This document shows, in pieces, positions 7,317 through 21,950 of a DNA stretch of 64,000 nt (positions within the stretch are counted from its first letter, which is position 1; the number at the start of each line of letters is the position of its first letter). Origin of the DNA: Trueperaceae bacterium. Its GTDB lineage: Bacteria; Deinococcota; Deinococci; Deinococcales; Trueperaceae. The translations under genes and the position numbers were made by a program. The notes under the pieces are model-generated. The model saw nothing but the letters and a program-made list of their open reading frames with translations, was not told the origin of the DNA and made no database searches. Where the stretch lies: assembly GCA_965213705.1 (NCBI GenBank), contig OZ243913.1, positions 704,001 to 768,000 on the forward strand. Reading direction: 5' to 3'.

Positions 7317-8516
7317 ATGACTACAAACAAGACGCGTGTTTACCCACTTGCGGGTGTGGCCGTGTTCGCCCTTCTCGCCGCCTGCGCTCCGGCAGCCGGG
7401 TCCGGCGCGAACACCGCCGCAACCTTGCCGCAACGGCGCGCCGCCGGGCCGGCCGAGGTGGTCGCAACTTTTCCCGAACTCATGCCGACCGGCGTTACCG
7501 TCGCCGCCGACGGCCGCACCTTTGTCAACTTTCCCCGCTGGGAAGAGGGTGTGCCCTACACCGTCGCGGAACTTGTCGACGGTCAAACCGTACCTTACCC
7601 CGACCTGGAAACCAATCGGCTTATTGAAACTGCGCCGGACACGCACTTCATCTCGGTGCAGAGCGTCGTGGTCGGCCCCGACAACCGGCTGTGGGTGCTC
7701 GACACCGGGCGGCCCCTCTTCAACACGCCGCCGGTCGGCCCCAAACTGGTCGCCATCAATTTGGACACCAACCAAATCGAACAAACCATTTCCTTCGGCA
7801 ACAGCGCCGCCGTTCTGGACACGACCTACCTAAACGACGTGCGCTTCGACCTGCGCAGCGGCGCGGCAGGGACGGCGTTCATCACCGACTCTTCCTCGCT
7901 GGGGCCGAACGCCCTCATCGTGGTCGACCTGGCGACGGGTGAGGCGTTCCGGCAGCTCGAGGGCGACCCGTCGGTGAGTGCCGTGCCGAACTTTTTGCCC
8001 GTCGTCGAGGGCCGGGTGCTCCTGAGCGACCCCGCCGACGCGCCGCCGAGCTACCTGGGCCTCGGGGCCGACGGGATTGCGATTACCGCCGACGCGCTCT
8101 TTTACCGTCCGCTGGCGAGTCGTCACCTCTACAGCGTACCGCTGGACCTGCTCGCCGACCCTGGAACCGACCCGCAAACCTTGGCAAGTGCGGTCACCGA
8201 CTACGGCGACCTGGGCTTCGCCTCGGACGGCCTCGAGTCCGACACCCTGGGCCGTGTCTACCTCACGAACTACGAGGACGGCGCGGTCCTTCGCTTTACG
8301 CCGGACGCGCCGCTCGGCGACCGCTTCGAGACGCTGCTTTACAATGCGGTCGTCATCTGGCCCGACACGCTCTCGCTGGCGGCGGACGGCTCGCTGTACT
8401 TGACGGTCAACCAACTCAACCGCCAGCCGACGTATCACAACGGCGAGGACCTGCGCCGACCGCCTTACAAGCTGATTCGCATCGCCACCGACGCGGAGCC
8501 GGTGCGCTTGCAGTAG
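7317..8516 (+). CDS. Major royal jelly protein / L-dopachrome tautomerase-related lipoprotein (6-bladed propeller)
   Basis: Lipobox LAAC; PTGVTV, FVNFPRW, SVQSVV, LWVLDTG, YLNDVRFD, GADGIA, WPDT. Confidence 0.88.
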   Translation: MTTNKTRVYPLAGVAVFALLAACAPAAGSGANTAATLPQRRAAGPAEVVATFPELMPTGVTVAADGRTFVNFPRWEEGVPYTVAELVDGQTVPYPDLETNRLIETAPDTHFISVQSVVVGPDNRLWVLDTGRPLFNTPPVGPKLVAINLDTNQIEQTISFGNSAAVLDTTYLNDVRFDLRSGAAGTAFITDSSSLGPNALIVVDLATGEAFRQLEGDPSVSAVPNFLPVVEGRVLLSDPADAPPSYLGLGADGIAITADALFYRPLASRHLYSVPLDLLADPGTDPQTLASAVTDYGDLGFASDGLESDTLGRVYLTNYEDGAVLRFTPDAPLGDRFETLLYNAVVIWPDTLSLAADGSLYLTVNQLNRQPTYHNGEDLRRPPYKLIRIATDAEPVRLQ

Positions 8517-8600: not shown

Positions 8601-8995
8601 CGAGACGATTACACCGAAGCCAACCGGGCGATGTGAAACGGCGAGCATTTATGCAGGTCTCAAGATGGAAGGTCTGCTCGCCGCCGTCCAAAAACCCGAC
8701 TGCAGCACGCTGGACGCGCTCGAGCAGCGCGTCTTCGCTTTGCTCGGCGTCGTGGGTAAGACGGTCGCCCAACTGAGTTGCAACAACGACCGCGAACCGC
8801 TGTCGCTCGCCAAGCTCGGGGCGGCGCGCTGTGTCGGCTTCGACAGCAGCGACGCGTTTGCAGAGCAAGGTAAGCTGCTGGTGGAAACGGGCAGTTTGGC
8901 CGCCGAGTTCTCGCGCGCGAGCGTCTACAGACATCCCGCACGCGTTTGACGACAGCTTCGACATCGTTTACGTCACCGTCGGCACGCTAGTCCAA
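8601..8995 (+). pseudogene. Degraded class I SAM-dependent methyltransferase
   Basis: Fragments in three frames: YTEANRAM* (TGA 8634-8636 where Trp is expected), GKTVAQLSCNN...LGAARCVGFD (8665-8949), DIPHAFDDSFDIVYVTVGTL (frame of ORF 8831); C-terminal half missing. Confidence 0.75.
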
Positions 8996-9089
8996 GTCCT
9001 CGAGCCTGACCCAATCGTCTTCGACGGGACACGTGGTGATGCCGTCAAGAACGCAACCCCCACGTCTGACGTACCAAAAAATTGCTCAA

Positions 9090-9452
9090 CTACTCCTGAA
9101 ACGCCCGCCGCGCCGCCTCGACGTCCGAAAAGTGTGCCACCGTCCATCCGCCCAGCGCCCGAATCGGCTCGACCAGGGTTAAACCCAAGGGGCTGAGGGC
9201 ATACACCACCTTGGGTGGAATTTCCGGATGGTGCTCTCTCGTCACCAGCCCGTTGCGCTCTAAATCTCTGAGTGTCTTTGTGAGCATTTTTTGTGAGATG
9301 TCGCCAAGCTCCCGCATCAGTTCGCCGTGCCTTTTCTCTTCGTTTGACAAAGACGCCAGGACGAGTAGCGCCCACCGGTTGGCGAGCATCTTGAAAACTT
9401 TCCTGGAGGGGCACTTGGGGTTGAGCACGTTCGGCGTGGGGGTATCAAGCAT
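9090..9452 (-). CDS. HxlR-family winged-helix transcriptional regulator
   Basis: CPSR..LANRWALLVL, ISQKMLTKTLRDLERNGLV.R...PEIPPKVVYALSPLG. Confidence 0.92.
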   Translation of the reverse strand: MLDTPTPNVLNPKCPSRKVFKMLANRWALLVLASLSNEEKRHGELMRELGDISQKMLTKTLRDLERNGLVTREHHPEIPPKVVYALSPLGLTLVEPIRALGGWTVAHFSDVEAARRAFQE

Positions 9453-9474
9453 AACCGTAGCTTAGCAAAAGAAG

Positions 9475-9555
9475 CAAGGCACTTTTTTATCCTATAGAAC
9501 CAGGCAGTGCCAAGGCTACTTGTTTCCCTAGAGCGGGTTTCTTAGGGTAAGTGGC
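9475..9555. promoter_or_regulatory. Putative HxlR operator boxes in the divergent promoter
   Basis: Imperfect direct repeats CAAGGCACTTTTTTATCCTATAG (9475-9497) and CAAGGCTACTTGTTTCCCTAGAG (9511-9533), plus an inverted partial copy TAGGGTAAGTGGC (9543-9555). Confidence 0.4.
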
Positions 9556-9599
9556 AGGTCGTTATGCGGCCTTACATTTCACGTTTAGGAGTCGCTTTT

Positions 9600-10157
9600 A
9601 TGAAAAAGATACTCGGTCTCGTTGCTCTTTTCACCCTCGTTACCCTGAGTTGGGCGCAGTCCCCCGCAGACCTGTCGGGTCGGTGGACAAGCCCTACCTG
9701 CGAAGACATAGGTAACGGTCTTTACCTCACACGTGAGTTTGAGCTTAGCGACACCCTGTGGTCCATCGGCTTCACCCTGTACGCCGATGAAGCCTGCACG
9801 GTCGGTCTGGCCCAGGGGCGTAACGAAGGCATCTATAACTTGGGTGCCGAATCCGCAGGTGGGCGTGAAGGCAACTTCGGTTTCAGCAAAAAGTACCACA
9901 CCCCGCTCGTCGCCGACTTCGTCACGGCTTTCGGCGACGCGGGGTGCGGTTCGGCTCCCTGGGAACTAGGCGTCGAGCAAGGCATCAGCAGCACCGGCTG
10001 TCCCGCGACGGGCACGCCCGCTATCGTTGAATGCCCTGTGGAGTACGACCTCGTCAAGCTCGAGGACGACCTGCTCTACTTCGGTGAGCGCTCAGGCGGG
10101 ATGTGCGACGCCGACAACCGCACGAACACGTTCGGTCTACCCGTCCAGAAACAGTAG
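9600..10157 (+). CDS. Secreted single-domain APCDD1-like protein
   Basis: Signal peptide MKKILGLVALFTLVTLSWA; pattern L.G.W.S..CE, LYLTR.F, Y.D..C, G.Y..G, GG.E..F, TP, CG...W..G..Q, GC...G, EY.L.K, LYFG.R matches the APCDD1 domain as I recall it; six Cys. Confidence 0.75.
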   Translation: MKKILGLVALFTLVTLSWAQSPADLSGRWTSPTCEDIGNGLYLTREFELSDTLWSIGFTLYADEACTVGLAQGRNEGIYNLGAESAGGREGNFGFSKKYHTPLVADFVTAFGDAGCGSAPWELGVEQGISSTGCPATGTPAIVECPVEYDLVKLEDDLLYFGERSGGMCDADNRTNTFGLPVQKQ

Positions 10158-10208
10158 TCGGACACGCAAGAAACGACATCGTCACAAAAATTACCGGAGG
10201 AGACAGTC

Positions 10209-10517
10209 GTGCATATTCGCCTCGTACGCTTGAGCGTCAAGCTCGAGTCCGTCAATGCTTTCCTCAAAGCGAGCGGCGAGAATGTGGGGAAGACGGTGCT
10301 CGAGGCGGGCGTCGTCCGCTTCGACCTGCTTCAGGAGCAAGACGACCCGACGACCTTTGTGGTGGTCGAGGTTTATGCGAGTGACGCGGCGAGGCTCGCT
10401 CACTTTGAAACCGAGGCGTTTCGGGTTTGGAGGGAGAAAACGGCCCCGATGCTGGAAAGTTTTAGCTCAACTCAGTACGTGAGGCCGGTAGAGAGCCTCA
10501 AAAGCCTGAGCGCTTAA
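10209..10517 (+). CDS. Antibiotic biosynthesis monooxygenase (ABM, LsrG/YgiN-like)
   Basis: EAGVVRFDLLQ...PTTFVVVEVY...AHFET; GGAGG RBS. Confidence 0.85.
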   Translation: MHIRLVRLSVKLESVNAFLKASGENVGKTVLEAGVVRFDLLQEQDDPTTFVVVEVYASDAARLAHFETEAFRVWREKTAPMLESFSSTQYVRPVESLKSLSA

Positions 10518-10525
10518 GAGCCCAC

Positions 10526-11431
10526 ATGGACACCATCGTCGTCACCGGAGCTACGGGACAAATCGGCAGCGAACTCGTCCACCTGCTCGCCTCGCACGCG
10601 TCGCAGCCTGAGATACGAGCTGCCACGCGCAATCCTTCATCATCCGCCGCAGGACTTTTGAGAGTGATGAACCCGGGGACGGTTCACCCCACAGCCTTCG
10701 ACATTGAAGATGAAGGGGGGCTCGAGAGGCTGTTCCAAGACGCGACCAAGCTCTGTATCATCGCGCCGGTCATCGACAGCATGGCAGCGTGGCACGCCAA
10801 ACTTATGGAGGTCTTCACGCGTGTCGGTCAACCCGCGTACATCGTCAAGGTCAGCGTCACGGGCGCACGCTCACCCGACAGCGACCCACCGCCCGGACGC
10901 TTTCCCTCGCTCCACTGGCAAGGGGAAGAGGCGATTCGGCGCAGCGACGTCGCTAGCACGGTGGTTCGCCCGACCATCTTTATGCAGCACTTTTTGAGCG
11001 TGCCGGGACTTTACACGAAGGGCGACGACCGCTTTTACCTGCCGAGTAGCGAGGGTGAAATCGCCTTTTTGGACTGCCGCGACATCGCCCACGCTGCGGC
11101 GACACTTTTGACAATGAACGCAGGAGAACGGCGAGTTTTCGAGGGGCAAGCCTTTGAACTCACCGGACCGAGTGCGCTCACCGCGGGCGAGATTGCCAGC
11201 ATCCTCAGTCTCGTAGCGGGCAGGCCCATAATGCACGTCGACGGTGTGGCGGCGTTTGAAGCGCACTGCCGCGAGTTAGGTGTGACCGACGCGCTGAAAA
11301 GCGTCTATGCGGAGGCTGCCGAGGGCTGGTTCAGCAGGCTCGAGCTAACCACCTTTGAACGCATTACCGGCAGACAACCTACCTCATTCGCCAAATTCGC
11401 CTACGACCACGCCGGCTATTTCAAGGAGTAA
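10526..11431 (+). CDS. NmrA-like NAD(P)H-binding oxidoreductase
   Basis: IVVTGATGQIG, H...E.AIR.S....VRP..FMQ, DCRDIA, ELTGP. Confidence 0.88.
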   Translation: MDTIVVTGATGQIGSELVHLLASHASQPEIRAATRNPSSSAAGLLRVMNPGTVHPTAFDIEDEGGLERLFQDATKLCIIAPVIDSMAAWHAKLMEVFTRVGQPAYIVKVSVTGARSPDSDPPPGRFPSLHWQGEEAIRRSDVASTVVRPTIFMQHFLSVPGLYTKGDDRFYLPSSEGEIAFLDCRDIAHAAATLLTMNAGERRVFEGQAFELTGPSALTAGEIASILSLVAGRPIMHVDGVAAFEAHCRELGVTDALKSVYAEAAEGWFSRLELTTFERITGRQPTSFAKFAYDHAGYFKE

Positions 11432-11434
11432 GCC

Positions 11435-11770
11435 ATGTTCACCTTTACGCTCACCGTAGAAGTTCCCGACGACCATGTCGAAACGTTTCTGGCCTTGACG
11501 CAAAAAGTCGCCGAGGCGACGCGTCAGGAAAAAGGCTGCCTCATCTTTGACCTGCTACGTTCGGCCAGTCGGCCAAACGAATTCACGACCTACGAAGCCT
11601 TTACGGATGAAGCGGATTGGAACCGGCACGTCGCTTTTGAACACACCAAAGCGTGGATGCGCGGCGTTCAAGAACTCGTAACGGAGCGCGGGTTCGACTC
11701 GGACCTCGTCAGCGCGTATTACGACCATTGGGCGGCGTTCACGATAGCGAAAGGTCAGTACCAGGGGTGA
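11435..11770 (+). CDS. Second ABM-family monooxygenase
   Basis: TRQEKGCLIFDL...PNEFTTYEAF...HVAFEH. Confidence 0.85.
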   Translation: MFTFTLTVEVPDDHVETFLALTQKVAEATRQEKGCLIFDLLRSASRPNEFTTYEAFTDEADWNRHVAFEHTKAWMRGVQELVTERGFDSDLVSAYYDHWAAFTIAKGQYQG

Positions 11771-11816
11771 CAACAAGCGCGCTGTTTTCGAGCTTCCGTG
11801 CGGTGTGACCGGTTTT

Positions 11817-13007
11817 TCAAATGGGGGCGGTAGCATTCGCTTTATAAAGTGCGTAGAGTTTTTCAGCGGCGTCACCGCGTTTCAGACCCGTAAGGCTGAT
11901 GTTCTCCGGCATACCGGGCAGGGCGCGGCGGGCGTGCTCGAGCCACCCCTCAGCCTCGGCCTCGGTCGAAATATCGTTCGGGCGGGCGTCGTAGCTTGAA
12001 AAATACCCTTTCGTCCCGAGGTACTGGACGGCGGGCACCCAGGACGCTTCCTTAGCCATGTCGAAGTCGTTGAAAAACGAGAGCATGTGTCCGTTCTCCG
12101 CGAGCCTGCGCTGCAGGGCGTCCACGCTGATGTCGGCGACCTGCGCTCGCGTTTCTTTGGCGAGCGCCGCTGCATAGCCCGCCGCCTCCGCCAACTGGAT
12201 AAGCGTCGGCGTCTGCCGCACCGTCCCCCAGGCGACGTGCGTGACCGAGCAGCACACGCTCACCAGCAGGTTGTCGAGCCTCTCGGGAAGCATCACCCGG
12301 TAGGGCACCTGCGCGGGGCGGGTCTGCTCCTGCAAAAAGAACTGCCCGTCACAGGCCGTTCCGGGGCGGCGCTCGGGGGTGCAAGCGAGCGAGTCGAGCG
12401 GAAAGTCGGTGACGGCGACGCTGTCGGCGTGGACGGGCGTGCGCTCCGAACGGGATGCTAAGAGCGCGTCGTGCTCGGTGAAGGTGGTGCGGCCCCAAAT
12501 CCTGCGTGCCTCGCGGACGTAGAGGTGGGTGGGGATGTTGTCGTTGTCGGTGAACTCGTCTTTTGAGAGGCCCCACTCGAGCGCCCGCAACCGCACCGCC
12601 CGCACGCGCCTCCGGTCGAGTTCGACAGCGGCAGGGTGATAGCGGTGCAAAACGGTGATGTCTTCCGCCTCGACCATCTCCCTGGCGACTTTGAGCGCCG
12701 CACTCGGCTCGAAAGTCATCATGGGGTTGCCGGGCTCCAAATAGACGCACTGCCGGTACTGGTCTGAATCCTCGCCGTAGGCCTCCCGGTAGTGGCGGAC
12801 GATGCCCGACTTTAACTCCTCGAGCAAGGGCGCACGCACCCCGGTGTAGTGCGTCTCGATAGCGCCCAAGGAGGCGAGCACGCCCGCGAAGTGTTCGTCC
12901 TGCGTGACCAGCAGCGTGGTAAGTCCCTCCCTGGCCGCGCGAACGGCGGCAGCGACGCCCGGGGCCGACTCACCAAAAACAAGCACATCAGCCTTCATCA
13001 TTTTCAT
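11817..13007 (-). pseudogene. FAD-dependent oxidoreductase (FAD_oxidored / xanthan-lyase-associated family) with apparent in-frame internal deletion
   Basis: N-terminal DVLVFGESAPGVAAAVRAAR and FEP, C-terminal WGL.KDEF.DN..LYVREARR and HVAWGTVR are present; the middle region (F.DATYEGDL, GRE, QAYN.R) is absent; junction at RALE|WGL. Confidence 0.65.
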
Positions 13008-13023
13008 CGTTAACCACTCCTTG

Positions 13024-13053
13024 TTGACAGATATCAGATATCTGTTTTAAAGT
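13024..13053. promoter_or_regulatory. Palindromic operator (likely GntR/FadR) overlapping a TTGACA -35 box
   Basis: ACAGATATC-A-GATATCTGT perfect inverted repeat at 13027-13045; TTGACA at 13024-13029; lies between divergent genes of an operon encoding a FadR-type regulator. Confidence 0.7.
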
Positions 13054-13104
13054 ATAGCTCGAGGCAGTTAACTTGGATAGGAGCAACTCGGATAGGAGCA
13101 GGGT

Positions 13105-14418
13105 GTGGAGAATCTTCCCCCGACGGAACTTCCCGGCTTGACCAAAAACTTTCACGTTCCCGCAGCCGTGTCGGGCAACGACGAGGCTCGGGCCCGCTGG
13201 TTTTCCGGCTTGGGTCTAGGGCTTTTCGTCCACTGGTCGCTCGACGTGCAGCTCGGGTCGGTCATCAGCCACTCGATGGTGGGGGCGTCGCAGGACTATC
13301 TGGAGCGCTTCGTCCACGACTTGCCCAAAACCTTCAACCCGACGCGCTTCGACCCGGACGCCTGGGCGCGGCAGGCGAAGGTCGCCGGGGTGCGCTACGT
13401 GGTGTTTACCACCAAGCACCACAGCGGCTTTTGCATGTTCGACACCGAAACCACCAGCTTCAACGTGATGAACACGCCTTATGGTAAAGACATCATCAGA
13501 GAGGTCGTGGACGCTTTTCGCGCCTGGGACATCGCCGTCGGCTTTTACTTTTCCCCCGACGACTTCTGGCTCTTGCACCGGCAGGGATACGAGGTGACGC
13601 GGTCGCGCCCCGAAGCCAACCCGCGCAACAACCCCGAGCTGATGGCGCACAACAGGACGCAGCTCCGCGAATTATTAACCCACTACGGGCCTGTCGACAT
13701 CGTCTTTTTCGACGGCGAGCCCGAGGGGTTGAAAGAACTCGCCTGGGAGCTTTCGCCGCAGACGGTGGTGACGCGAGGCGACATGGCGACGCCCGAGCAG
13801 ACCCTGCCGGACGCGCCCCTGCCGCCCCCCTGGGAGGCGTGCTTCACGCTCGGCACCCAGTGGGCGTACAAACCTACCCATGAAACGTACAAGTCGGGCA
13901 CGGAGCTTATCGACATGCTCGTCGAGACGCGGGCCAAGGGCGGCAACCTGCTCTTAAACGTAGGTCCCAAACCCGACGGCGGCTTACCCATCCAACAGAC
14001 GGACCGCCTGCAAGAACTCGCGCTGTGGATGTTCGTGAACGGGGAGGCGATTTACGACACGGCGTCCCTCCCGGTCGTCCGGGAAACGCTCACGCTCGAG
14101 CACGAGGTCTGGTACACGCGCAAGGGCGACACCGTCTACGCCCTCGTTACGGGCGGCGCGTGGCCCAAGGGAGAGCGCAAAGTCGTCACCCTGAAGAGCA
14201 TTTGCGCGACCGAAGCCACGGAAGTCGAGGTGTTGGGGCAGTCGGGCAACGCGCTCGAGTACCGCCTCGGTGTCAGTCCTAAAGCGAGCTGGACGCAGGA
14301 TGATAACGGACTGCACCTCTCGGTGATGCGGGCGCAGCGCCTGCACAACGACTCAAAATGGCCCAACCCCGTGGTGATTCGCGTTACTCACGCCCGTTGG
14401 CAAGACGAAAGGGCCTGA
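13105..14418 (+). CDS. Alpha-L-fucosidase (GH29), no signal peptide
   Basis: GLFVHW, FNPTRFDPDAW, VFTTKHHSGF, LLTHYG.VD..FFDG, GGNLLLNVGP. Confidence 0.88.
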   Translation: MENLPPTELPGLTKNFHVPAAVSGNDEARARWFSGLGLGLFVHWSLDVQLGSVISHSMVGASQDYLERFVHDLPKTFNPTRFDPDAWARQAKVAGVRYVVFTTKHHSGFCMFDTETTSFNVMNTPYGKDIIREVVDAFRAWDIAVGFYFSPDDFWLLHRQGYEVTRSRPEANPRNNPELMAHNRTQLRELLTHYGPVDIVFFDGEPEGLKELAWELSPQTVVTRGDMATPEQTLPDAPLPPPWEACFTLGTQWAYKPTHETYKSGTELIDMLVETRAKGGNLLLNVGPKPDGGLPIQQTDRLQELALWMFVNGEAIYDTASLPVVRETLTLEHEVWYTRKGDTVYALVTGGAWPKGERKVVTLKSICATEATEVEVLGQSGNALEYRLGVSPKASWTQDDNGLHLSVMRAQRLHNDSKWPNPVVIRVTHARWQDERA

Positions 14419-14419
14419 C

Positions 14420-15139
14420 GTGGCCCGGCTGAAGACCCTCGAGCGCAGCCCCGCCATCCGCGAACGCGTGCAGGACGCCATCCGAGCCTACGTGTCCGAG
14501 AACGGCCTTAAAGCAGGTGACGCCCTGCCGCCCGAAACGAAGTTGGCTGAGCAGTTGGGCGTAAGCCGCTTGTCCGTGCGCGAGGCGGTCAAGGTGTTGG
14601 AGAGCACGGGCTTCGTGCGCTCGGAACGCGGCAACGGCCTGTTCGTCGGCAGCTTCTCGTTCGACCCGCTTCTGGAGCACCTGCCTTACGGCCTCATGGA
14701 CGACCTTTCCAACCTCTCCGACCTGTTGCAGATGCGGGCCTTTTTGGAACTCGGCATGGCGGACGCGGTGCTCGCTCGCCTCACGGAGGAGCAGCTCGAG
14801 GCGGCACGCGCGGTTCTTGAACAGATGAAGGCGCAGGCGGCAGCGGGCGGCGTCTTGCCCGAGGCCGACCGCGAGTTTCACCGGCTCTACTGCCGGAACC
14901 TCGGCAACCCCCTCATCAGCAAGGTCACCGATATGTTTTGGCAGGCCTTCCGCCGCGCCAGCCAGCACGCCGCCATTGGGGACACCGACCCGGCCCGCAC
15001 CTACCGCGACCACGAGCGGGTCGTCCGCGCCCTCGAGACCGGCGACCTCACGGGGCTCCGAAGCGCGCTCGAGCAGCACTACGCCTACATCCTCGAGCGT
15101 TTAGGACGCGCTCAACAGCGCCAGAAAGGAGGCGCGTGA
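14420..15139 (+). CDS. GntR/FadR-family transcriptional regulator
   Basis: GDALPPETKLAEQLGVSRLSVREA; FCD domain with DREFH. Confidence 0.93.
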   Translation: MARLKTLERSPAIRERVQDAIRAYVSENGLKAGDALPPETKLAEQLGVSRLSVREAVKVLESTGFVRSERGNGLFVGSFSFDPLLEHLPYGLMDDLSNLSDLLQMRAFLELGMADAVLARLTEEQLEAARAVLEQMKAQAAAGGVLPEADREFHRLYCRNLGNPLISKVTDMFWQAFRRASQHAAIGDTDPARTYRDHERVVRALETGDLTGLRSALEQHYAYILERLGRAQQRQKGGA

Positions 15140-16026
15140 CCCTCTCCGGCGTCATTCCGCCCGTCATTACGCCCCTGACGGATGACGGCAGCCTCGACCT
15201 GCCCGCACTCGAGCGGCTGTTGGAACGTCTCATCGCAGCGGGCGTGGGTGGGCTGTTCATGCTGGGTACGAGCGGCGAAGGCCCGTGGCTGAAGCGCGAA
15301 CAGCAAATCAAAGTTCTCGAGGTCGCTGTTCGGGTTGCGGCGGGGCAGGTGCCCGTTATCGCCGGGGTGCTCGAGCCGAGTACGGGCCGCGTTGTCGAAG
15401 CCTTGTCCGCCTTTGAAAACGTGGGAGTGGACGCCTTAGCCCTCACGACGCCCTACTACTTCGGGGTTTCCGACACAGCCCAGCTTCATCATTTTGAAAG
15501 GGTGCTCGAGGCGACGAACCTCCCCGTCGTGCTCTACAACATCCCGTCGGCGACGCACAATTCGCTCTCGGTCGAGACCGTTCGGCAGCTCGCCCGACAT
15601 CCGCACGTCCTCGGCATCAAAGACAGCACGGGCGACCGAGAGCACTTCCGCCGGTTGCTCGAGCTTAAAACCGCACACGACGGCTTCAGCGTTTTGCAAG
15701 GTGCCGAGGTCGCCGCGGGCGAGGCGCTGCTGGCGGGTGCCGACGGCGTGGTCGCGGGCCTCGCCAACCTCGAGCCGGAGCCTTTCGTGCAGATGCTCGA
15801 GGCGGCGCGGCGGGGGGACGAGGCGCGGGTGCGGGTGCTTCAAGCACGCGTCGCCGCCCTGTGGGAACTCCACACTCACGGCCACTGGCTGAGCTGTTTA
15901 AAGTACGCCGCCCACCTGCGCGGGTGCGGGTGCGGGAAAACCCTGGGGCTAGAGGAGCTTGCGCCGGACGCCCAAGCCCAAATAGCCGACGTTCTAAGCC
16001 TGTACCAACAAGGAGGTACACCATGA
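15136..16026 (+). CDS. Dihydrodipicolinate synthase-family aldolase/lyase
   Basis: GVIPPVITP, LGTSGEG, PYYF, LYNIP, GIKDS. Confidence 0.9.
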   Translation: MTLSGVIPPVITPLTDDGSLDLPALERLLERLIAAGVGGLFMLGTSGEGPWLKREQQIKVLEVAVRVAAGQVPVIAGVLEPSTGRVVEALSAFENVGVDALALTTPYYFGVSDTAQLHHFERVLEATNLPVVLYNIPSATHNSLSVETVRQLARHPHVLGIKDSTGDREHFRRLLELKTAHDGFSVLQGAEVAAGEALLAGADGVVAGLANLEPEPFVQMLEAARRGDEARVRVLQARVAALWELHTHGHWLSCLKYAAHLRGCGCGKTLGLEELAPDAQAQIADVLSLYQQGGTP

Positions 16027-17297
16027 AACCGTCCGTTTTTCGTCCCCTCATCGTTCTGCTCGCCGTTTTCGGTCTCTCCACAGCCCTGGCCCAGGACACC
16101 GTGCGCGTGTTCACCCTCGACTCGTTTCAAGAACTTATCGAAGGCGAGGGCGACGCGGGCACCAACGTACTCGCTGATGCCCCCTTCACTGTCGAGTGGG
16201 AACTGAGCCCCTTCCAGGGCTACGAACTCAAGATGCGCCGCGCCATCACCAGCCCGCGCCCGAGCGTGGACGTGGTGTTCGTGCTGGACAGGTGGGGCGG
16301 CTCGAGCATCTACCGCAGCGCCACGCCGCTCGGCCCCCTCATGGACGCGGAGCCGATTGAGGACTTCGACGACGTCATCGCGGGCACCTTAGAGCCGTTC
16401 ACTTTTGGGGGTGAACTCTACGGCATCCCCTTCCGCAGCGCCTTTCACGTGCTCTGGTACAACGCCGACATGTTGGCGGCGCAGACCGGCACCTCCGAGC
16501 CGCCTTCGAGCATGGCGGCTTTCTGGGACAACGTGGCCGCGACGACCTACACTGACGACAACGGCGACCAGGTCTACGGGCTCGCCATCTATGGCGGCGC
16601 GGAGGGCGGCAAGGAGTTTATCAAGCTGGCGATGGCTTACGGGGCTCGCATCCTGGACGATGACCTCAACGTGACCGTCGACAGTCCTGAAATGATTCAG
16701 TTCGTCACCGACATCAGCGACGCCTTCCAGGCGGGCCAGGTCGTGCCGAACTTCGACACCATCGCCTCGGGCGACGTGCGCACCTACCTCAAACAGGGCT
16801 TGGCCGCGCACGCGGTCACGACCTTCAGTTTTTACAACGACTTCAACAATCCCGAATCTTCACAGGTTCCGGGGCAAATCCGGGACGCCGTGCTGCCCGC
16901 CGCCGAGGGGTCGGGTTTGGAGTTTGCGCCTCACCAGGTGGCGACCTGGGGGCTGGTCATCCCTGCCGGACTATCTGACGAGCGTAAAGCTTTAGCATGG
17001 GAATTCATTCGCTACCTCTCGAGCGGTGATGCCTCACTCGCCCTCGCCTTGAACGGCAACGGCCCCATCCGCCAGTCCGCTTTCTCCGACGCTGGCTACA
17101 ACGAGACCGAGCCGACCTCGGCGACGCTGCAAGCCATCGCGCCGACCGCCAAGGCCATCATCCAGGCCATCGACGCCTCGACCGAAATTCTGGAGATTTA
17201 CGGCGAAGAGGTCACCGCCGCCATGCTCGGCGACAAGACGCCCGAAGAGGCGATGGCGGACGCCGCTACCGCCATCCGCGTCGTCGTAGAACAATAG
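16023..17297 (+). CDS. Carbohydrate ABC transporter substrate-binding protein
   Basis: Signal peptide ending ALA-Q; GELYGIPF, LWYNADML, AWEFIRYL, KTPEEA. Confidence 0.88.
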   Translation: MKPSVFRPLIVLLAVFGLSTALAQDTVRVFTLDSFQELIEGEGDAGTNVLADAPFTVEWELSPFQGYELKMRRAITSPRPSVDVVFVLDRWGGSSIYRSATPLGPLMDAEPIEDFDDVIAGTLEPFTFGGELYGIPFRSAFHVLWYNADMLAAQTGTSEPPSSMAAFWDNVAATTYTDDNGDQVYGLAIYGGAEGGKEFIKLAMAYGARILDDDLNVTVDSPEMIQFVTDISDAFQAGQVVPNFDTIASGDVRTYLKQGLAAHAVTTFSFYNDFNNPESSQVPGQIRDAVLPAAEGSGLEFAPHQVATWGLVIPAGLSDERKALAWEFIRYLSSGDASLALALNGNGPIRQSAFSDAGYNETEPTSATLQAIAPTAKAIIQAIDASTEILEIYGEEVTAAMLGDKTPEEAMADAATAIRVVVEQ

Positions 17298-17318
17298 GGG
17301 CCGCTACTCCAGCGACCC

Positions 17319-18245
17319 ATGCTTCAAAGTCGAACCCGCCCACCCAAGGCTGAGCCCGCCCGCCGCGCCCCGCGTTTCTCGGAACGCCTGCGCGGCTACG
17401 GGCTCCTCTTGCCCGCCGCCCTGCTCTTGACGGGCATCATCCTGGTGCCGGAACTCTTAGCGCTCGGCATGGCCTTTACCGATTACGAGATTGGGCTCGA
17501 GCCCACCTTCGTGGGCTTCCGCAACTTTACGCGCGTGCTTACCGACCCGCGCTTTTTGCACGCTTTGCAGGTGAACGTTATCTACGTCGTCGCGGCGGTG
17601 GCGGCGCAGATGATTCTCGGGGTGCTTCTGGCGGTCCACATGGCGAAGCGCTTCCGCTTCCAGGGGCTCTGGATTGCGCTCATCATGCTGCCCTCGGCGC
17701 TCTCGACCACGGTCTTAATCGTCGTCTGGCGCTATATTTTAGACCTCAACATCGGGGTGGCGAACTACTTTATCTCACGGCTCGGCTTCGACCCGGTTTA
17801 TTTTCTCAGCCAGGAGAACGCGCTCTTCACCGTCATTTTGGTCGAGGTGTGGGCGGCGATTCCGCAGGTTTTTTTGTTTATTTATCCCGCCCGCAGCACC
17901 ATCTCGCAAGACATCTACGACAGCGCCGCCATCGACGGGGCGAGCGGCTTTGCGCTCTTTCGCCACATCACGCTGCCGCTCTTGAAACCCGCCATCTACG
18001 TGGCGCTGATTTTTCGCACCATCTTCACCATCCGCTCGTTCGGCGTGGTGTGGCTCATGACCGGGGGCGGGCCGCGTCGCTCTACCGAGTTGCTGGCGAT
18101 TTATCTCTACAAAGAGGGTTTCGTCTACAACCGCTTCTACAGCGCGGCGGCGGTGTCGTTTCTCATTCTCGTGATTACCGTCCTCATTTCGGGCTGGCTG
18201 GTGCGCCGCATGTACTTGAACACCTTCGCCGAGAGTACCGCGTGA
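17319..18245 (+). CDS. Carbohydrate ABC transporter permease
   Basis: FVGFRNF, DSAAIDGASGFALFRHITLPLLKP, TGGGP. Confidence 0.92.
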   Translation: MLQSRTRPPKAEPARRAPRFSERLRGYGLLLPAALLLTGIILVPELLALGMAFTDYEIGLEPTFVGFRNFTRVLTDPRFLHALQVNVIYVVAAVAAQMILGVLLAVHMAKRFRFQGLWIALIMLPSALSTTVLIVVWRYILDLNIGVANYFISRLGFDPVYFLSQENALFTVILVEVWAAIPQVFLFIYPARSTISQDIYDSAAIDGASGFALFRHITLPLLKPAIYVALIFRTIFTIRSFGVVWLMTGGGPRRSTELLAIYLYKEGFVYNRFYSAAAVSFLILVITVLISGWLVRRMYLNTFAESTA

Positions 18246-19084
18246 GCATGTTCACCCGTAAGCGCCTCGGGCGCGGCGTCGACTACGCCATCACCTTGGT
18301 GGCCGCCGCCTTTTTGTCGTTTCCCGTGCTGCTCCTTGTTTTGTCGTCATTCAAGCTCGAGCGCGACATCTTTTCGCGCGCGCCGACATTTTTGTTCAGG
18401 CCGCAGCTCGACAACTACCGCATTATTCTCGAGAACAACAATTTTGTGTCCGGGCTGCAGATGAGTCTGCTCGTCACCGTGGGCGCGGTGCTCCTGACGC
18501 TGCTCGCTTCTCTGCCCGCCGCGTACGCGTACTCGAGGACCGGTCTCGTCGGCGTGAAACGGACCGCGCTGGGCCTCATCGCCGTGCGGATGTTCCCGCC
18601 GATTATCATCGCCATTCCCCTCTATCCTATTCTGCTCAGGCTCAACCTCTTCGACACGCCCTGGGTGCTCATCCTGGTCCACGCGGCCTTTCAAATCAGC
18701 ATCACCACGCTGCTCCTCAAGGTGTTTATCGACGCCGTCCCCAAAGAACTCGACGAGGCCTCCATGATAGACGGCTGCAACCGCGCCCAGTCGTTCTTTC
18801 TGGTCGTGTTTCCGCTCCTCGCCCCCGGTCTTTTCGCCGCCTCCATCTTCGTGGCGCTCGCCGCCTGGAACGACTACCTGTTCGCTTTCCTGTTCACCAA
18901 CTTCGAAGCTAGGACGCTGCCCATCGTCATCTCTGAACTGCTCCACGAGGTCGAACTCGGCCAGGTCGGCTGGGGCGAGGTTTTCGCGGTCTGCACGGTG
19001 CAAATGGTGCCAATTATCGCTTTTATCTGGGCGACGCAAAAACGGCTCTTGAGTTCTTTTACCCTGGGCGCGGTCAAGGGCTAG
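18242..19084 (+). CDS. Carbohydrate ABC transporter permease
   Basis: PKELDEASMIDGC, AWNDYLFA; start GTG 18242 or ATG 18248. Confidence 0.92.
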   Translation: MSMFTRKRLGRGVDYAITLVAAAFLSFPVLLLVLSSFKLERDIFSRAPTFLFRPQLDNYRIILENNNFVSGLQMSLLVTVGAVLLTLLASLPAAYAYSRTGLVGVKRTALGLIAVRMFPPIIIAIPLYPILLRLNLFDTPWVLILVHAAFQISITTLLLKVFIDAVPKELDEASMIDGCNRAQSFFLVVFPLLAPGLFAASIFVALAAWNDYLFAFLFTNFEARTLPIVISELLHEVELGQVGWGEVFAVCTVQMVPIIAFIWATQKRLLSSFTLGAVKG

Positions 19085-20460
19085 TGTCGCGTCTCAACCT
19101 CCTTTTCGTCGTCGCCGACCAGCTCCGGGCGGACGTCGCCTATCACGAGGCGTACCCGTTCGTCCAAACACCCAACCTCGACCGGCTGCGCCGCCGGGGG
19201 ACGACGTTTACGAATACGTTTTGTCAGTATCCCGTCTGCGGTCCGTCGCGCGCCTCGTTTATAACCGGGCGCTATCCGCAGCAGGTCGGCGTTTTGGACA
19301 ACCGCTCGCTGCTGCCGCCCGAGGAGCGCACCTGGGGGCATCACCTCGAGGCTAACGGCTTTGAAACCGTCGCCTTCGGCAAAACGCACGGCATGAACCC
19401 CGGTTTTACCCGCTACCCCGAACCGGATTTTCTGATGAGCTTAGGCACGACCGAGTGGGGCTGGTTCAGCGGGCAGTCGATGACGACGGCGAGCCGAGAG
19501 GAGCCGAGACGTCCCCTGGTCGGTGTGCTCGAGGGTGGTGAAGCGGCTCACTACGACGTGCAGGTCACGTCTCGGGCGGTTCGCTTTCTCTCCCAACGAG
19601 ACGCGAACCGCCCTTTTGCCATGTTCGTCGGCCTCCACACGCCACATCCGCCCCTCTTTCTCCCCGCCGCGTACCACCACCTCTACTCGCCTGATGAGAC
19701 CGAACTTTTTGAGGTGTCCGAAGACCCCGCGACCAAACCTTCCATCCAGCAGGCGGTGCGCGAACCTTGGTTGGGAAGCTCAGAGGATGTGAGGCGGGAA
19801 CTCGTGGCGGCTTATCTGGCGCAGGTCACGCTAATGGACGCGTGCCTGGGGCGCTTGTTGGACGGGCTCGAGCATCACGGTCTGCTAGGCGACACGCTCA
19901 TCATTTTTACCGCCGACCACGGCGAGCAACTTGGCGAACACAATATGCTCGGCAAATTCAACAGTTTTTATGAAGGCAGCTTGCGCGTGCCGCTGGTGCT
20001 CAGCCTCTCCTCTAAAATCCAGCCGGAGCGAAACTCTTCCGCGCTCGTCGAGTTACTGGACATCGTTCCGACCCTTTTCGACCTCTTGGGAGTGCCGCAG
20101 CCGGACAGTCTCGGGGGAAAAACCCTGCTGCCGCTCCTCGAGCACTCAGAGCGCAGCCACCGCTCGTACGTCCACGCGGTACTGCTGGACAAGTCTGCGA
20201 GCAAGGTGGGACACTCGAGCCACTTTACAAATGCGGTTCGCGGTCAGATGGTTCGTTCAGAACGCCTTAAACTTGCCGTTTACACAGATGGGGCCGGGGA
20301 GCTTTACGACCTCGTGGACGACCCCGCCGAACGTGTGAACCGTTACGCCGACAGGGCGTTATTCGATGAGAAAACGGAGCTGCTCGAGGCCCTCCTGCGT
20401 CACGCCGGTTCGACTTTCAGGACGCCGCCGCTGTGGGGGCACAACAACTTTCCCGGTTAG
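19084..20460 (+). CDS. Cys-type sulfatase (choline-sulfatase-like)
   Basis: ADQLR, CGPSRAS (CxPxR), GKTH, PHPP, ADHGE, FYEGSLRVPL. Confidence 0.92.
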   Translation: MSRLNLLFVVADQLRADVAYHEAYPFVQTPNLDRLRRRGTTFTNTFCQYPVCGPSRASFITGRYPQQVGVLDNRSLLPPEERTWGHHLEANGFETVAFGKTHGMNPGFTRYPEPDFLMSLGTTEWGWFSGQSMTTASREEPRRPLVGVLEGGEAAHYDVQVTSRAVRFLSQRDANRPFAMFVGLHTPHPPLFLPAAYHHLYSPDETELFEVSEDPATKPSIQQAVREPWLGSSEDVRRELVAAYLAQVTLMDACLGRLLDGLEHHGLLGDTLIIFTADHGEQLGEHNMLGKFNSFYEGSLRVPLVLSLSSKIQPERNSSALVELLDIVPTLFDLLGVPQPDSLGGKTLLPLLEHSERSHRSYVHAVLLDKSASKVGHSSHFTNAVRGQMVRSERLKLAVYTDGAGELYDLVDDPAERVNRYADRALFDEKTELLEALLRHAGSTFRTPPLWGHNNFPG

Positions 20461-20510
20461 CTGCCGAGCCCCTGTTCCGACTCCGGCAAGATGCACGCCG
20501 CCTCGAGCCC

Positions 20511-21950
20511 TCACCCGACCCTGTCCACAAACCCCGCCGCCGCTTCTAAAACATCTCTCACCTCCGGCTCACTCTGCGCTTCGCAGTACACGCGCAGCAC
20601 CGGCTCGGTGCCGCTCGGGCGGAACATCAGCCAGGCCTTGCCGCTCAGGTTGAGCTTGATACCGTCCAAACGCTCGACCGACTCGACCCTGCGCCCCGCA
20701 AACGCTTCCGGCGGATGTTGCAGCGCCGCCATCACCGCGTCCTTGAGGGCGTTGCCGCTTAGGTGGAGGTCCAGGCGGTCGTAGGCGTGCTGCCAAGCGA
20801 CTTCTTTCTCGATGTCGGCAAACAACTCGGCCAAAGACTTCCCCGTGCTCGCCGTTGCTGCCAGCAGCAACAGCCCGTTGGCAATGCCGTCGCGTTCGGG
20901 TAGGTGCCCACTCACGCCGATGCCACCCGATTCCTCGCCGCCGACGAGGACGTCCCCGTCTAGCATCGCGTCGACGATGTACTTGAAGCCGACCGGCGTT
21001 TCGACGACCTCCAAACCCCGCGCTCGCGCTAAACGTTCGACGATTCTCGAGACCGTAAACGTTTTGACCACTTTACCTGTTTTTCCTTGGCGGCTTAAAC
21101 TCTCAATCAACACCGCAAAAATCTGGTGCGAGTTGAAAAACGTTCCCCCCGGCAACACCACGCCGATGCGGTCGGCGTCGCCGTCGGTGGCGATGAGCAG
21201 CCCGTCGCTTCGCGTTTTCATGTAGGCCGTCGCCGCGCCTAAGTTGTCCGGAATCGGCTCGGGGTTGACGCCGTAAAATAGGGGGTCGGATTTGGGGTGC
21301 AGGTCGACAGCACGCCCTCCGAGGCCGATGTGCTCGAAAAAGCCACTCAGCCAACCCGTGCCCGAGCCGCCCATCGCCTCGTGGACGATTTCACCTTGCA
21401 CGGTTTGCAAAGCCTCGACGGCGACCAGGTTTGCAAGGGCATCGAGATAAGCCTCACGGATGTCGAAAGTGTCGACCTTGTGGCGCTCAGGGTCGAAGAC
21501 GGCAACGTCGTCCGGAGCTGTTTTCTCGACCCGCTCGCTCACCGCTTTGTAAATGTCGCTGGTGGCGGTGCCGCCGTAAACGCCTTTGAGTTTGAAGCCG
21601 TGGTACGGCGGCGGGTTGTGCGACGCGGTCAGCATCACGCCGCCGCCCGTTTTAAGGTGTTTGACCGCGAACGACAGCGCGGGCGTGGGCAAGTAGTCCG
21701 CTGAAACGGAGACCTCGAGCCCGTTCGCCGCCAACACTTCGGCCGCCCGGCGCGCGAACAGCGGGCCGTTGAAACGGGTGTCGTAGCCGACGAGCACCTT
21801 GGTTTGCCCTTTTTCCAGGAGATAGTCCGCGTAGGCTTGGGCGGCCCTCGAGAGGTTGGAAAAAGTAAACTTGTCGGCAATCACGTCGCGCCAACCGTCG
21901 GTGCCGAACACGAGTTTGTCCACAGCTTGACCTTCGCCCTGACTTGCCAT
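20511..21950 (-). CDS. Phosphoglucomutase/phosphomannomutase
   Basis: FGTDGWR, TASHNP, DGDADR, GGEESGG, RPSGTEP; ATG overlaps the upstream stop (TGATG). Confidence 0.93.
   Translation of the reverse strand: MASQGEGQAVDKLVFGTDGWRDVIADKFTFSNLSRAAQAYADYLLEKGQTKVLVGYDTRFNGPLFARRAAEVLAANGLEVSVSADYLPTPALSFAVKHLKTGGGVMLTASHNPPPYHGFKLKGVYGGTATSDIYKAVSERVEKTAPDDVAVFDPERHKVDTFDIREAYLDALANLVAVEALQTVQGEIVHEAMGGSGTGWLSGFFEHIGLGGRAVDLHPKSDPLFYGVNPEPIPDNLGAATAYMKTRSDGLLIATDGDADRIGVVLPGGTFFNSHQIFAVLIESLSRQGKTGKVVKTFTVSRIVERLARARGLEVVETPVGFKYIVDAMLDGDVLVGGEESGGIGVSGHLPERDGIANGLLLLAATASTGKSLAELFADIEKEVAWQHAYDRLDLHLSGNALKDAVMAALQHPPEAFAGRRVESVERLDGIKLNLSGKAWLMFRPSGTEPVLRVYCEAQSEPEVRDVLEAAAGFVDRVG

Follow-up and report, generated by a model that had tools for sequence, protein, structure and literature searches.

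Animal APCDD1, a Wnt inhibitor, contains two barrels in tandem, an interdomain disulfide, and a single-pass membrane anchor. According to the available text of its structure paper (PMC10193966), ABD1 and ABD2 of the mouse protein share ∼25% identity, a fatty acid occupies the ABD2 pocket of ∼350 Å3, the pocket of ABD1 measures ∼35 Å3, and single APCDD1 domains were not producible on their own; we found no discussion of bacterial homologues in that text. The accessible part of a preprint by Vonica et al. (bioRxiv 10.1101/843714) mentions a 205-residue APCDD1-like protein in a few bacteria, whose six sequences were removed from the analysis and for which that part gives no fold, context, or function, and it proposes that APCDD1 is taxon-restricted and possibly arose de novo. 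Here we analyze such a bacterial barrel, encoded by a 185-codon open reading frame (ORF; 9600–10157, plus strand) within a 64,000-nucleotide stretch of a Trueperaceae genome (GenBank GCA_965213705.1, contig OZ243913.1, positions 704,001 to 768,000), hereafter the window. A divergent HxlR regulator gene lies upstream, and genes for an ABM-family protein, an NmrA-like oxidoreductase, and a second ABM-family protein follow.

The window barrel resembles ABD2 of mouse APCDD1 (Protein Data Bank (PDB) entries 8e0p, 8e0r, and 8e0w) in its motif order and, as modeled, in its barrel and helix-loop fold. It differs from animal APCDD1 in ending after one domain (stop codon at 10157), in having a third Cys pair, and in occurring beside a small-molecule regulator in a Wnt-less bacterial host; lacking tandem barrels, an interdomain disulfide, and a membrane anchor, it is not classed here as an APCDD1 orthologue. 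A working model for the system that we propose is BcnA/LcoA/PsrA of Burkholderia cenocepacia, described in the accessible parts of two papers (PMC9113575; PMC5350466) as a secreted barrel that is induced by stress, binds hydrophobic compounds, and is accompanied by redox enzymes including a cytoplasmic reductase. That system uses another barrel family (BcnB reached only Z 5.7, and the window barrel has no YceI match in Pfam), its cytochrome b561 had no counterpart among 150 ORFs neighboring barrel genes, and the window differs from it in having an adjacent one-component regulator. In pairing an N-terminal-Cys regulator divergently with an NmrA-like enzyme, the window also resembles QorR-QorA, HypR-HypO, and YodB/CatR, as covered by the available text of PMC3351151; unlike these DUF24/oxidoreductase pairs, its putative operon adds a barrel predicted to be exported and two ABM genes, and its reductase is distant from YtfG.

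Results

The window barrel is a bacterial single-domain form of the APCDD1 barrel

The preliminary description of this DNA had read ORF 9600–10157 as a signal peptide plus one APCDD1-type domain, and that reading was borne out. The protein by itself matched mouse APCDD1 in a phmmer search of the PDB (E = 1.1e-9), and a profile of 65 family members matched APCDD1 at E = 4.7e-43 with no other PDB match at E ≤ 5. The profile match falls on the lipid-binding half, scoring 105.6 bits for ABD2 versus 42.4 bits for ABD1. An AlphaFold2 model of the barrel (pLDDT 97.2) was submitted to Foldseek, where APCDD1 chains accounted for all eight matches at E ≤ 0.001 (TM-scores 0.80–0.83), and on ABD2 (VIA) the model superposed with Z 19.9 and a root mean square deviation of 1.8 Å over 157 of 166 residues at 26% identity, as a predicted beta-barrel with an alpha-helix/loop subdomain. 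In a direct comparison with the Pfam APCDDC family (PF14921), which the preliminary description had proposed as a check, the single protein stayed below the gathering score (18.9 versus 27 bits); 60 of the 65 aligned members matched APCDDC at E ≤ 0.05, and many relatives exceeded its gathering score. The likeness to APCDD1 is far beyond chance, and the profile and fold scores rule out a fortuitous motif match. Flavodoxin matches in the phmmer search (E ≥ 0.004) vanished with the family profile and are noise, as are weak matches of a second barrel paralogue of this genome (E ≥ 0.69).

The nearest folds outside APCDD1 were the Vibrio periplasmic barrels VtrC (Z 10.1) and ToxS (Z 8.0), followed by lipocalin-like proteins; VtrC and ToxS are smaller than the window barrel and share 5–6% identity with it, and the VtrC structures in the Foldseek listing are bile-salt bound. 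Both proteins are obligate partners of membrane regulators.

The six Cys residues of the window barrel are predicted to form three disulfides (C34–C66, C116–C134, and C145–C169), since the members of a pair are kept or lost together, as disulfides would be. Among 219 domains, C34 and C66 were both present in 173, both absent in 45, and single in 1; for C145 and C169 the corresponding numbers among 209 domains were 175, 34, and 0, and C116 and C134 are nearly invariant. Five charged residues (R45, D63, D150, R164, and R174) are kept in 86–94% of the family, and the same positions are also retained in mouse APCDD1. The barrel is ABD2-like by sequence, and it may have an open hydrophobic pocket able to hold a lipid.

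The signal peptide was assigned by eye (MKK, a hydrophobic core, and SWA/Q), and the absence of a lipobox Cys led us to reject a lipoprotein reading for this family member. An alternative start at ATG 9564 is disfavored, as AGGAG at 9587–9591 and the relatives favor ATG 9600.

The family is large and recurrently adjoins an upstream regulator

A search of 1.84 billion representative sequences yielded 470 clusters with E ≤ 0.001. The best 150 of them were taken up, and the remainder may include animal proteins. Protein lengths and export signals refer to a set of 221 proteins, and the genomes searched comprised 364 Deinococcota and samples of 301 Myxococcota and 301 Chloroflexota, in which 14, 39, and 2 genomes, respectively, carried a barrel. 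Median pairwise identity is 30%, and 194 of the 221 proteins have at most 260 residues. By a crude hydrophobicity rule, 186 proteins carry an export signal, 103 as a signal peptide and ∼83 with a lipobox. A metagenome scan for the barrel gave 2 short loci only.

Among 51 loci with at least 300 nucleotides of upstream DNA, a divergent one-component regulator was present at 28 (LysR at 23, HxlR at 2, TetR at 2, and AraC at 1), and AraC plus glyoxalase genes lay upstream on the same strand at 6, with remnants of that pair at 2 others. In either layout, 34 of the 51 loci had an upstream one-component regulator. For comparison, five carrier genomes of 5–14 Mb contained 3, 15, 38, 50, and 74 LysR genes (three of these numbers being lower bounds), or ∼1% or less of their genes. 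The LysR proteins beside barrels fall into two subfamilies in quick trees, in which related loci are not independent, and none reached an NCBIfam cut-off; GcvA/YafC-like proteins occur in one barrel clade, and BsrA/LeuO-like subgroups track four barrel clades. Two LysR subfamilies together with HxlR, TetR, and AraC imply at least five regulator recruitments.

The genes downstream vary. Co-oriented partners in separate clades encode a zinc-type quinone-oxidoreductase-like protein (L055), DJ-1/SnoaL proteins (L089), and a Cyclase-family protein (L059, barrel directly upstream); others encode an alpha/beta hydrolase plus an MFS transporter (L027), an MFS transporter (8 loci in one clade), or an NmrA/epimerase-like enzyme (L021/L022). 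Cyclase (kynurenine formamidase-like) domains are also fused to the barrel in three proteins (P0054, P0064, and P0166) and DUF1330 domains in two. DUF1330 and ABM belong to one structural clan. Propeller-like fusions number five (P0082, P0088, P0157, P0173, and P0190; weak Pfam support, assigned partly by eye); they resemble gluconolactonase/strictosidine synthase folds, and one adds LysM and two barrels.

A second barrel in the genome of the window (G000:C1:3203866-3204423) is divergent in sequence and lacks the C34/C66 pair. It belongs to a cassette (G000:C1:3202900-3207060; L074:6835-11060) in which a divergent TetR gene and the barrel are followed by genes for a 348-residue membrane protein that matched neither Pfam nor NCBIfam, for an enzyme of NmrA/epimerase-like type, and for a cupredoxin; the cassette is a sharply bounded 4.2-kb unit, 91% identical in G276, a genome of another genus. 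Across bacteria, the regulator and the barrel are the constant elements, and the enzyme partners are exchanged.

Several loci show features that stand apart from this pattern. In G032 (L004/L011) the barrel gene is broken by a TAA stop codon and the upstream AraC gene is a remnant, as in a decaying cassette. An aminoglycoside 3-N-acetyltransferase family gene lies just downstream of a barrel on the same strand in G274 (L019:166-1035). A convergent neighbor in a myxococcotal genome (L069:2229-3506) has a weak ETX/MTX2 match (E = 1.6e-5) and seems unrelated to the barrel. Two near-identical contigs labeled Enterobacterales (L028/L029), with 74% GC, carry a Myxococcota-type barrel, and their label may be wrong.

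Bacterial tandem barrels and the members closest to animals

Nine family proteins have two barrels, and in 8 of the 9 the halves are each other's closest relatives when the first half is compared with all other domains analyzed. This suggests that duplication took place repeatedly in bacteria and leaves the idea that these tandems are direct ancestors of the animal tandem unsupported. One of them, P0089 (152.6 bits to mouse APCDD1), continues after its two barrels with a VPDTG motif, a hydrophobic stretch, and a basic tail, and on these sequence features it is a predicted anchored tandem paralleling the animal architecture. Duplication and anchoring appear to have arisen independently several times in bacteria as well. 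A single-domain Hyalangium protein reached 100.5 bits against ABD2 but 21 bits against ABD1, with ∼40% identity to mouse ABD2 by a by-eye count; UniRef already labels a Hyalangium protein as APCDD1-domain-containing. In Hyalangium versicolor, tandem barrel genes lie between a divergent LysR gene and an MFS transporter gene (L026:4923-6151), and a third copy elsewhere in that genome (L041) is more animal-like.

Five short sequences (P0112, P0117, P0178, P0220, and L020) have few or no Cys residues and no evident signal peptide; they are possibly cytoplasmic members, or else fragments. A general loss of Cys in signal-less forms is a weak proposition, as 8 proteins with short N termini average 3.1 Cys residues versus 4.9 and some may be fragments.

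The window locus and its island

The coordinates and strands of the five ORFs were re-derived and all match those given in the preliminary description, whose account of three co-oriented genes behind the barrel and a divergent HxlR gene with a Cys in NPKCPSR holds, each of these four proteins passing its Pfam cut-off (Table 1). The intergenic gaps from the barrel through the second ABM gene are 51, 8, and 3 nucleotides, and this spacing suggests co-transcription of 9600–11770 as a likely operon. The HxlR-barrel intergenic region contains an imperfect palindrome, GGCACT..AGTGCC, at 9478–9511 (inverted repeat I1, 70% complementary), a candidate HxlR operator. No sigma-70 consensus promoter and no terminator above the level of shuffled sequence were found in 8950–11950.

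Table 1. Features of the barrel locus (window coordinates)
Feature	Coordinates	Strand	Basis or remark
5' remnant of island-cut gene	8665..8990	+	methyltransferase-like by eye; no Pfam match
Horizontally shared island	9084..20458		88–94% identical to G276; left edge at HxlR stop codon
HxlR/DUF24 (MarR-type) regulator	9090..9452	-	120 residues, single Cys14 in NPKCPSR; Pfam PF01638
Divergent promoter region	9453..9599		between HxlR and barrel gene
Predicted Sec signal peptide, 19 residues, no lipobox	9600..9656	+	sequence read by eye
Single APCDD1-type beta-barrel, ABD2-like, six Cys	9657..10157	+	profile, fold model, Cys co-variation
ABM-family dimeric alpha/beta barrel, LsrG/DUF176-like	10209..10517	+	Pfam PF03992
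NmrA-like NAD(P)-binding oxidoreductase, intact GxxGxxG	10526..11431	+	Pfam PF05368
Second ABM-family protein	11435..11770	+	Pfam PF03992

The HxlR protein (82.7 bits, gathering score 20.8) had 1yyv as its best PDB match (E = 1e-21), with ungapped-range matches to HxlR and YybR/HypR, and its Cys14 aligns with a Cys of 1yyv and of 2fsw. The available text of PMC3351151 reports that this N-terminal Cys is conserved in DUF24 regulators, that it senses diamide, quinones, or aldehydes, and that QorR regulates a quinone oxidoreductase; by analogy, Cys14 is likely an electrophile sensor.

The NmrA-like protein scored 49.8 bits (gathering score 27), reached no NCBIfam cut-off, retains its dinucleotide-binding motif, and best matched YtfG (E = 1.8e-12, a distant match) and triphenylmethane reductase (E = 4e-9) in the PDB. 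YtfG is a quinone reductase, and its gene is paired with ytfH.

The first ABM protein scored 55.4 bits (gathering score 23.1; PDB 2omo at E = 1e-12 and LsrG, 2gff, at E = 6e-10) and the second 61 bits (3kkf, 2omo, and LsrG at E = 4e-6 to 3e-5). The PDB entries that they matched with E ≤ 0.001 belong to DUF176, LsrG, and putative ABM proteins, their scores against the LsrG NCBIfam equivalog (43.8 and 40.1 bits) are far below its cut-off of 135, and no lsr genes adjoin the ABM genes in the window. The ABM assignment of the preliminary description stands, and LsrG-type proteins appear closer in sequence to the two proteins than any named quinol monooxygenase does.

The five genes are under purifying selection, with ratios of nonsynonymous to synonymous change (pN/pS) against G276 of 0.09 for HxlR, 0.16 for the barrel, 0.02 for the second ABM, and 0.02–0.35 for all five. 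They are 90–97% identical in the two genomes, whereas the HxlR-barrel intergenic region is the same at 147 of 147 nucleotides.

The preliminary description had expected HxlR, ABM, and NmrA genes to recur beside bacterial barrels. We inspected 56 distinct loci, in most cases together with 1.5 kb of DNA on either side; in Myxococcota mainly the best-scoring copy per genome was included, ∼20 of 52 barrel matches lying outside the inspection. Six-frame searches used profiles built from few sequences, namely this genome's paralogues, and had limited sensitivity, and the Pfam scan covered 150 of 168 called ORFs, excluding window genes, G276 copies, near-duplicates, and one shadow ORF; the gene caller overlooked some real neighbor genes. 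The full set was present at 2 of the 56 loci, the window and G276, and the 150 scanned ORFs contained no further ABM or HxlR protein and an NmrA protein only next to the second paralogue. The two loci go back to one recent transfer, given that the island is 88–94% identical in the two genera, as opposed to 71–73% for the fab genes, and is absent from G001, a genome of the same genus, in which the syntenic site runs continuously from 8988 to 20520. There, an intact 233-residue ORF whose start matches the remnant stands in place of the truncated window gene. We therefore rejected a conserved HxlR-barrel-ABM-NmrA-ABM module in independent lineages; this particular redox operon is a local arrangement that spread by a recent transfer. 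What survives of the module idea is a looser form, made up of the family-wide upstream regulators, the second TetR/NmrA-like cassette, and the enzyme fusions.

The occurrence of the NmrA subfamily itself was examined in 730 genomes at E ≤ 1e-35. It was found in 2 of 128 family genomes and 4 of 301 Myxococcota, and all 6 have a barrel gene. The four Myxococcota are all among the 39 barrel carriers of that phylum, an overlap with a chance probability of ∼2.5e-4 by a hand estimate that ignores kinship, with 7 candidates per genome having been scored; the co-occurrence is no more than a hint of association.

The remainder of the island (13105–20460) encodes an alpha-L-fucosidase, a GntR/FadR regulator, a dihydrodipicolinate synthase-like aldolase, sugar ABC transporter components, and a sulfatase, which as a gene set likely serves the use of a sulfated or fucosylated glycan. 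Between it and the barrel genes, an FAD-dependent oxidoreductase gene (11817–13007, minus strand) is ∼675 nucleotides shorter than its G276 copy through an in-frame internal loss near 12576–12588, and its product is possibly inactive. Adjoining the island, a propeller lipoprotein of the Major royal jelly/Yellow family (7317–8516, plus strand), another family common to bacteria and animals, is absent at the syntenic site in G001.

Discussion

We propose, at about an even chance of being right, that the barrel is an inducible, exported protein that traps or carries some small hydrophobic molecule beyond the cytoplasm. In the window, a reactive or lipophilic compound (a quinone, an aldehyde, or a similar electrophile) would react with the divergent HxlR/DUF24 regulator at Cys14, and the modified regulator would turn the operon on. 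The exported barrel would then bind the compound in the periplasm, while the cytoplasmic NmrA-like reductase and the two ABM proteins would convert the compound that gets in.

A number of observations weigh against this proposal. The window operon contains no gene for a transporter between periplasm and cytoplasm, and its gene set is confined to the two loci of a single transfer. The NmrA subfamily was not found in the 301 Chloroflexota genomes, in 35 of the 39 Myxococcota carriers, or in any of 5 further carriers, and in the four Myxococcota that have it the gene is not next to the barrel in the DNA examined, two of the genes lying at contig ends. At the protein level, the window barrel falls short of the APCDDC gathering score, N75 and H100 are polar at positions that are hydrophobic in most relatives, and ABD1 shows that the interior of this fold can be almost filled. 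Across the family, none of the four regulator families lies directly upstream at 15 of the 51 loci, some downstream genes (HD domain, M23 peptidase, and glycerate kinase) look unrelated, and the listing of small-molecule-enzyme neighbors is a raw one.

Were the barrel instead to collect hydrophobic nutrients or signals that are taken up and catabolized, and not to serve protection, the regulators would be substrate sensors, in keeping with the LysR, AraC, and TetR partners, the Cyclase-family and alpha/beta hydrolase fusions or neighbors, the island's further genes for a fucosidase, a sulfatase, and sugar ABC components, and the resemblance of the ABM proteins to LsrG, a signal-catabolizing isomerase. 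We consider this unlikely, as the 150 neighboring ORFs scanned included no family of outer-membrane receptors or of lipid uptake proteins, the window regulator is of the Cys-bearing DUF24 type, and the sugar cluster, which lies beyond a convergent gene, comes with a GntR regulator of its own. The barrel might also be a passenger beside an ordinary QorR/QorA-type pair of HxlR and NmrA-like reductase with which it shares no substrate, a pairing of regulator and quinone oxidoreductase already described in the available text of PMC3351151. The single transfer event and the NmrA orthologues that do not adjoin a barrel elsewhere fit that view, which we judge to be distinctly unlikely; it is weakened by the barrel gene coming directly after the shared promoter region, by its pN/pS, by the movement of a second barrel cassette with the same layout between the same two genomes, and by the barrel gene in every genome with the NmrA subfamily.

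That the barrel is a periplasmic enzyme, such as a cyclase, lyase, or isomerase of a lipocalin-like kind, seems rather improbable. The highly conserved charged residues, the polar N75 and H100, and the co-location of barrel genes with enzymes would suit catalysis, yet mouse APCDD1, which the accessible text of PMC10193966 reports as binding only, retains the charged positions, N75 occurs in just 11 of 229 family domains and so is no family-wide catalytic residue, and the fold search gave no enzyme above Z 8. It is very improbable that the barrel acts as a periplasmic co-receptor through which a membrane partner would respond to a ligand, as its nearest folds after APCDD1, VtrC and ToxS, might suggest: the identity to both is minimal, the adjoining regulators are cytoplasmic one-component types, and no recurrent ToxR-like membrane regulator was seen among the neighbors scanned. 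An inducible trap or carrier outside the cytoplasm is the reading that we retain.

The preliminary description had called the system undescribed. This calls for some qualification as regards the sequences, as bacterial APCDD1-like proteins appear in the accessible part of the Vonica et al. preprint (bioRxiv 10.1101/843714) and very likely belong to the family described here, their length and a myxobacterial host agreeing. Nothing was found on the fold, context, or function of the bacterial family in a literature search whose coverage mostly stopped short of subscription journals, nor did the literature searched contain an earlier report of the family's size, its closeness to ABD2, or its regulator link. 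These three features argue against a de novo animal origin of APCDD1. We suggest that the animal barrel may descend from inducible small-molecule traps that bacteria export and whose large family travels in regulator-barrel cassettes, an ABD2-like member having entered the animal stem, where it would have been duplicated and membrane-anchored and its pocket turned to Wnt palmitoleate; the chances for and against this history seem to us evenly balanced. The identity of the Hyalangium protein to mouse ABD2 is above that between ABD1 and ABD2.

We conclude that the window barrel is a real bacterial single-domain form of the APCDD1 barrel and that a link to regulators recurs in its family. With natural single-domain ABD2-like proteins, both the ancestry of the fold and the chemistry of its ligands can be tested on small proteins, and the family places the APCDD1 fold in a setting unrelated to Wnt. 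Since inducers of the adjacent regulators can be screened with reporters, these regulators provide direct access to the barrel ligands. Should capture be confirmed, a new barrel family would join the few known systems with which bacteria deal with hydrophobic compounds beyond the cytoplasm.

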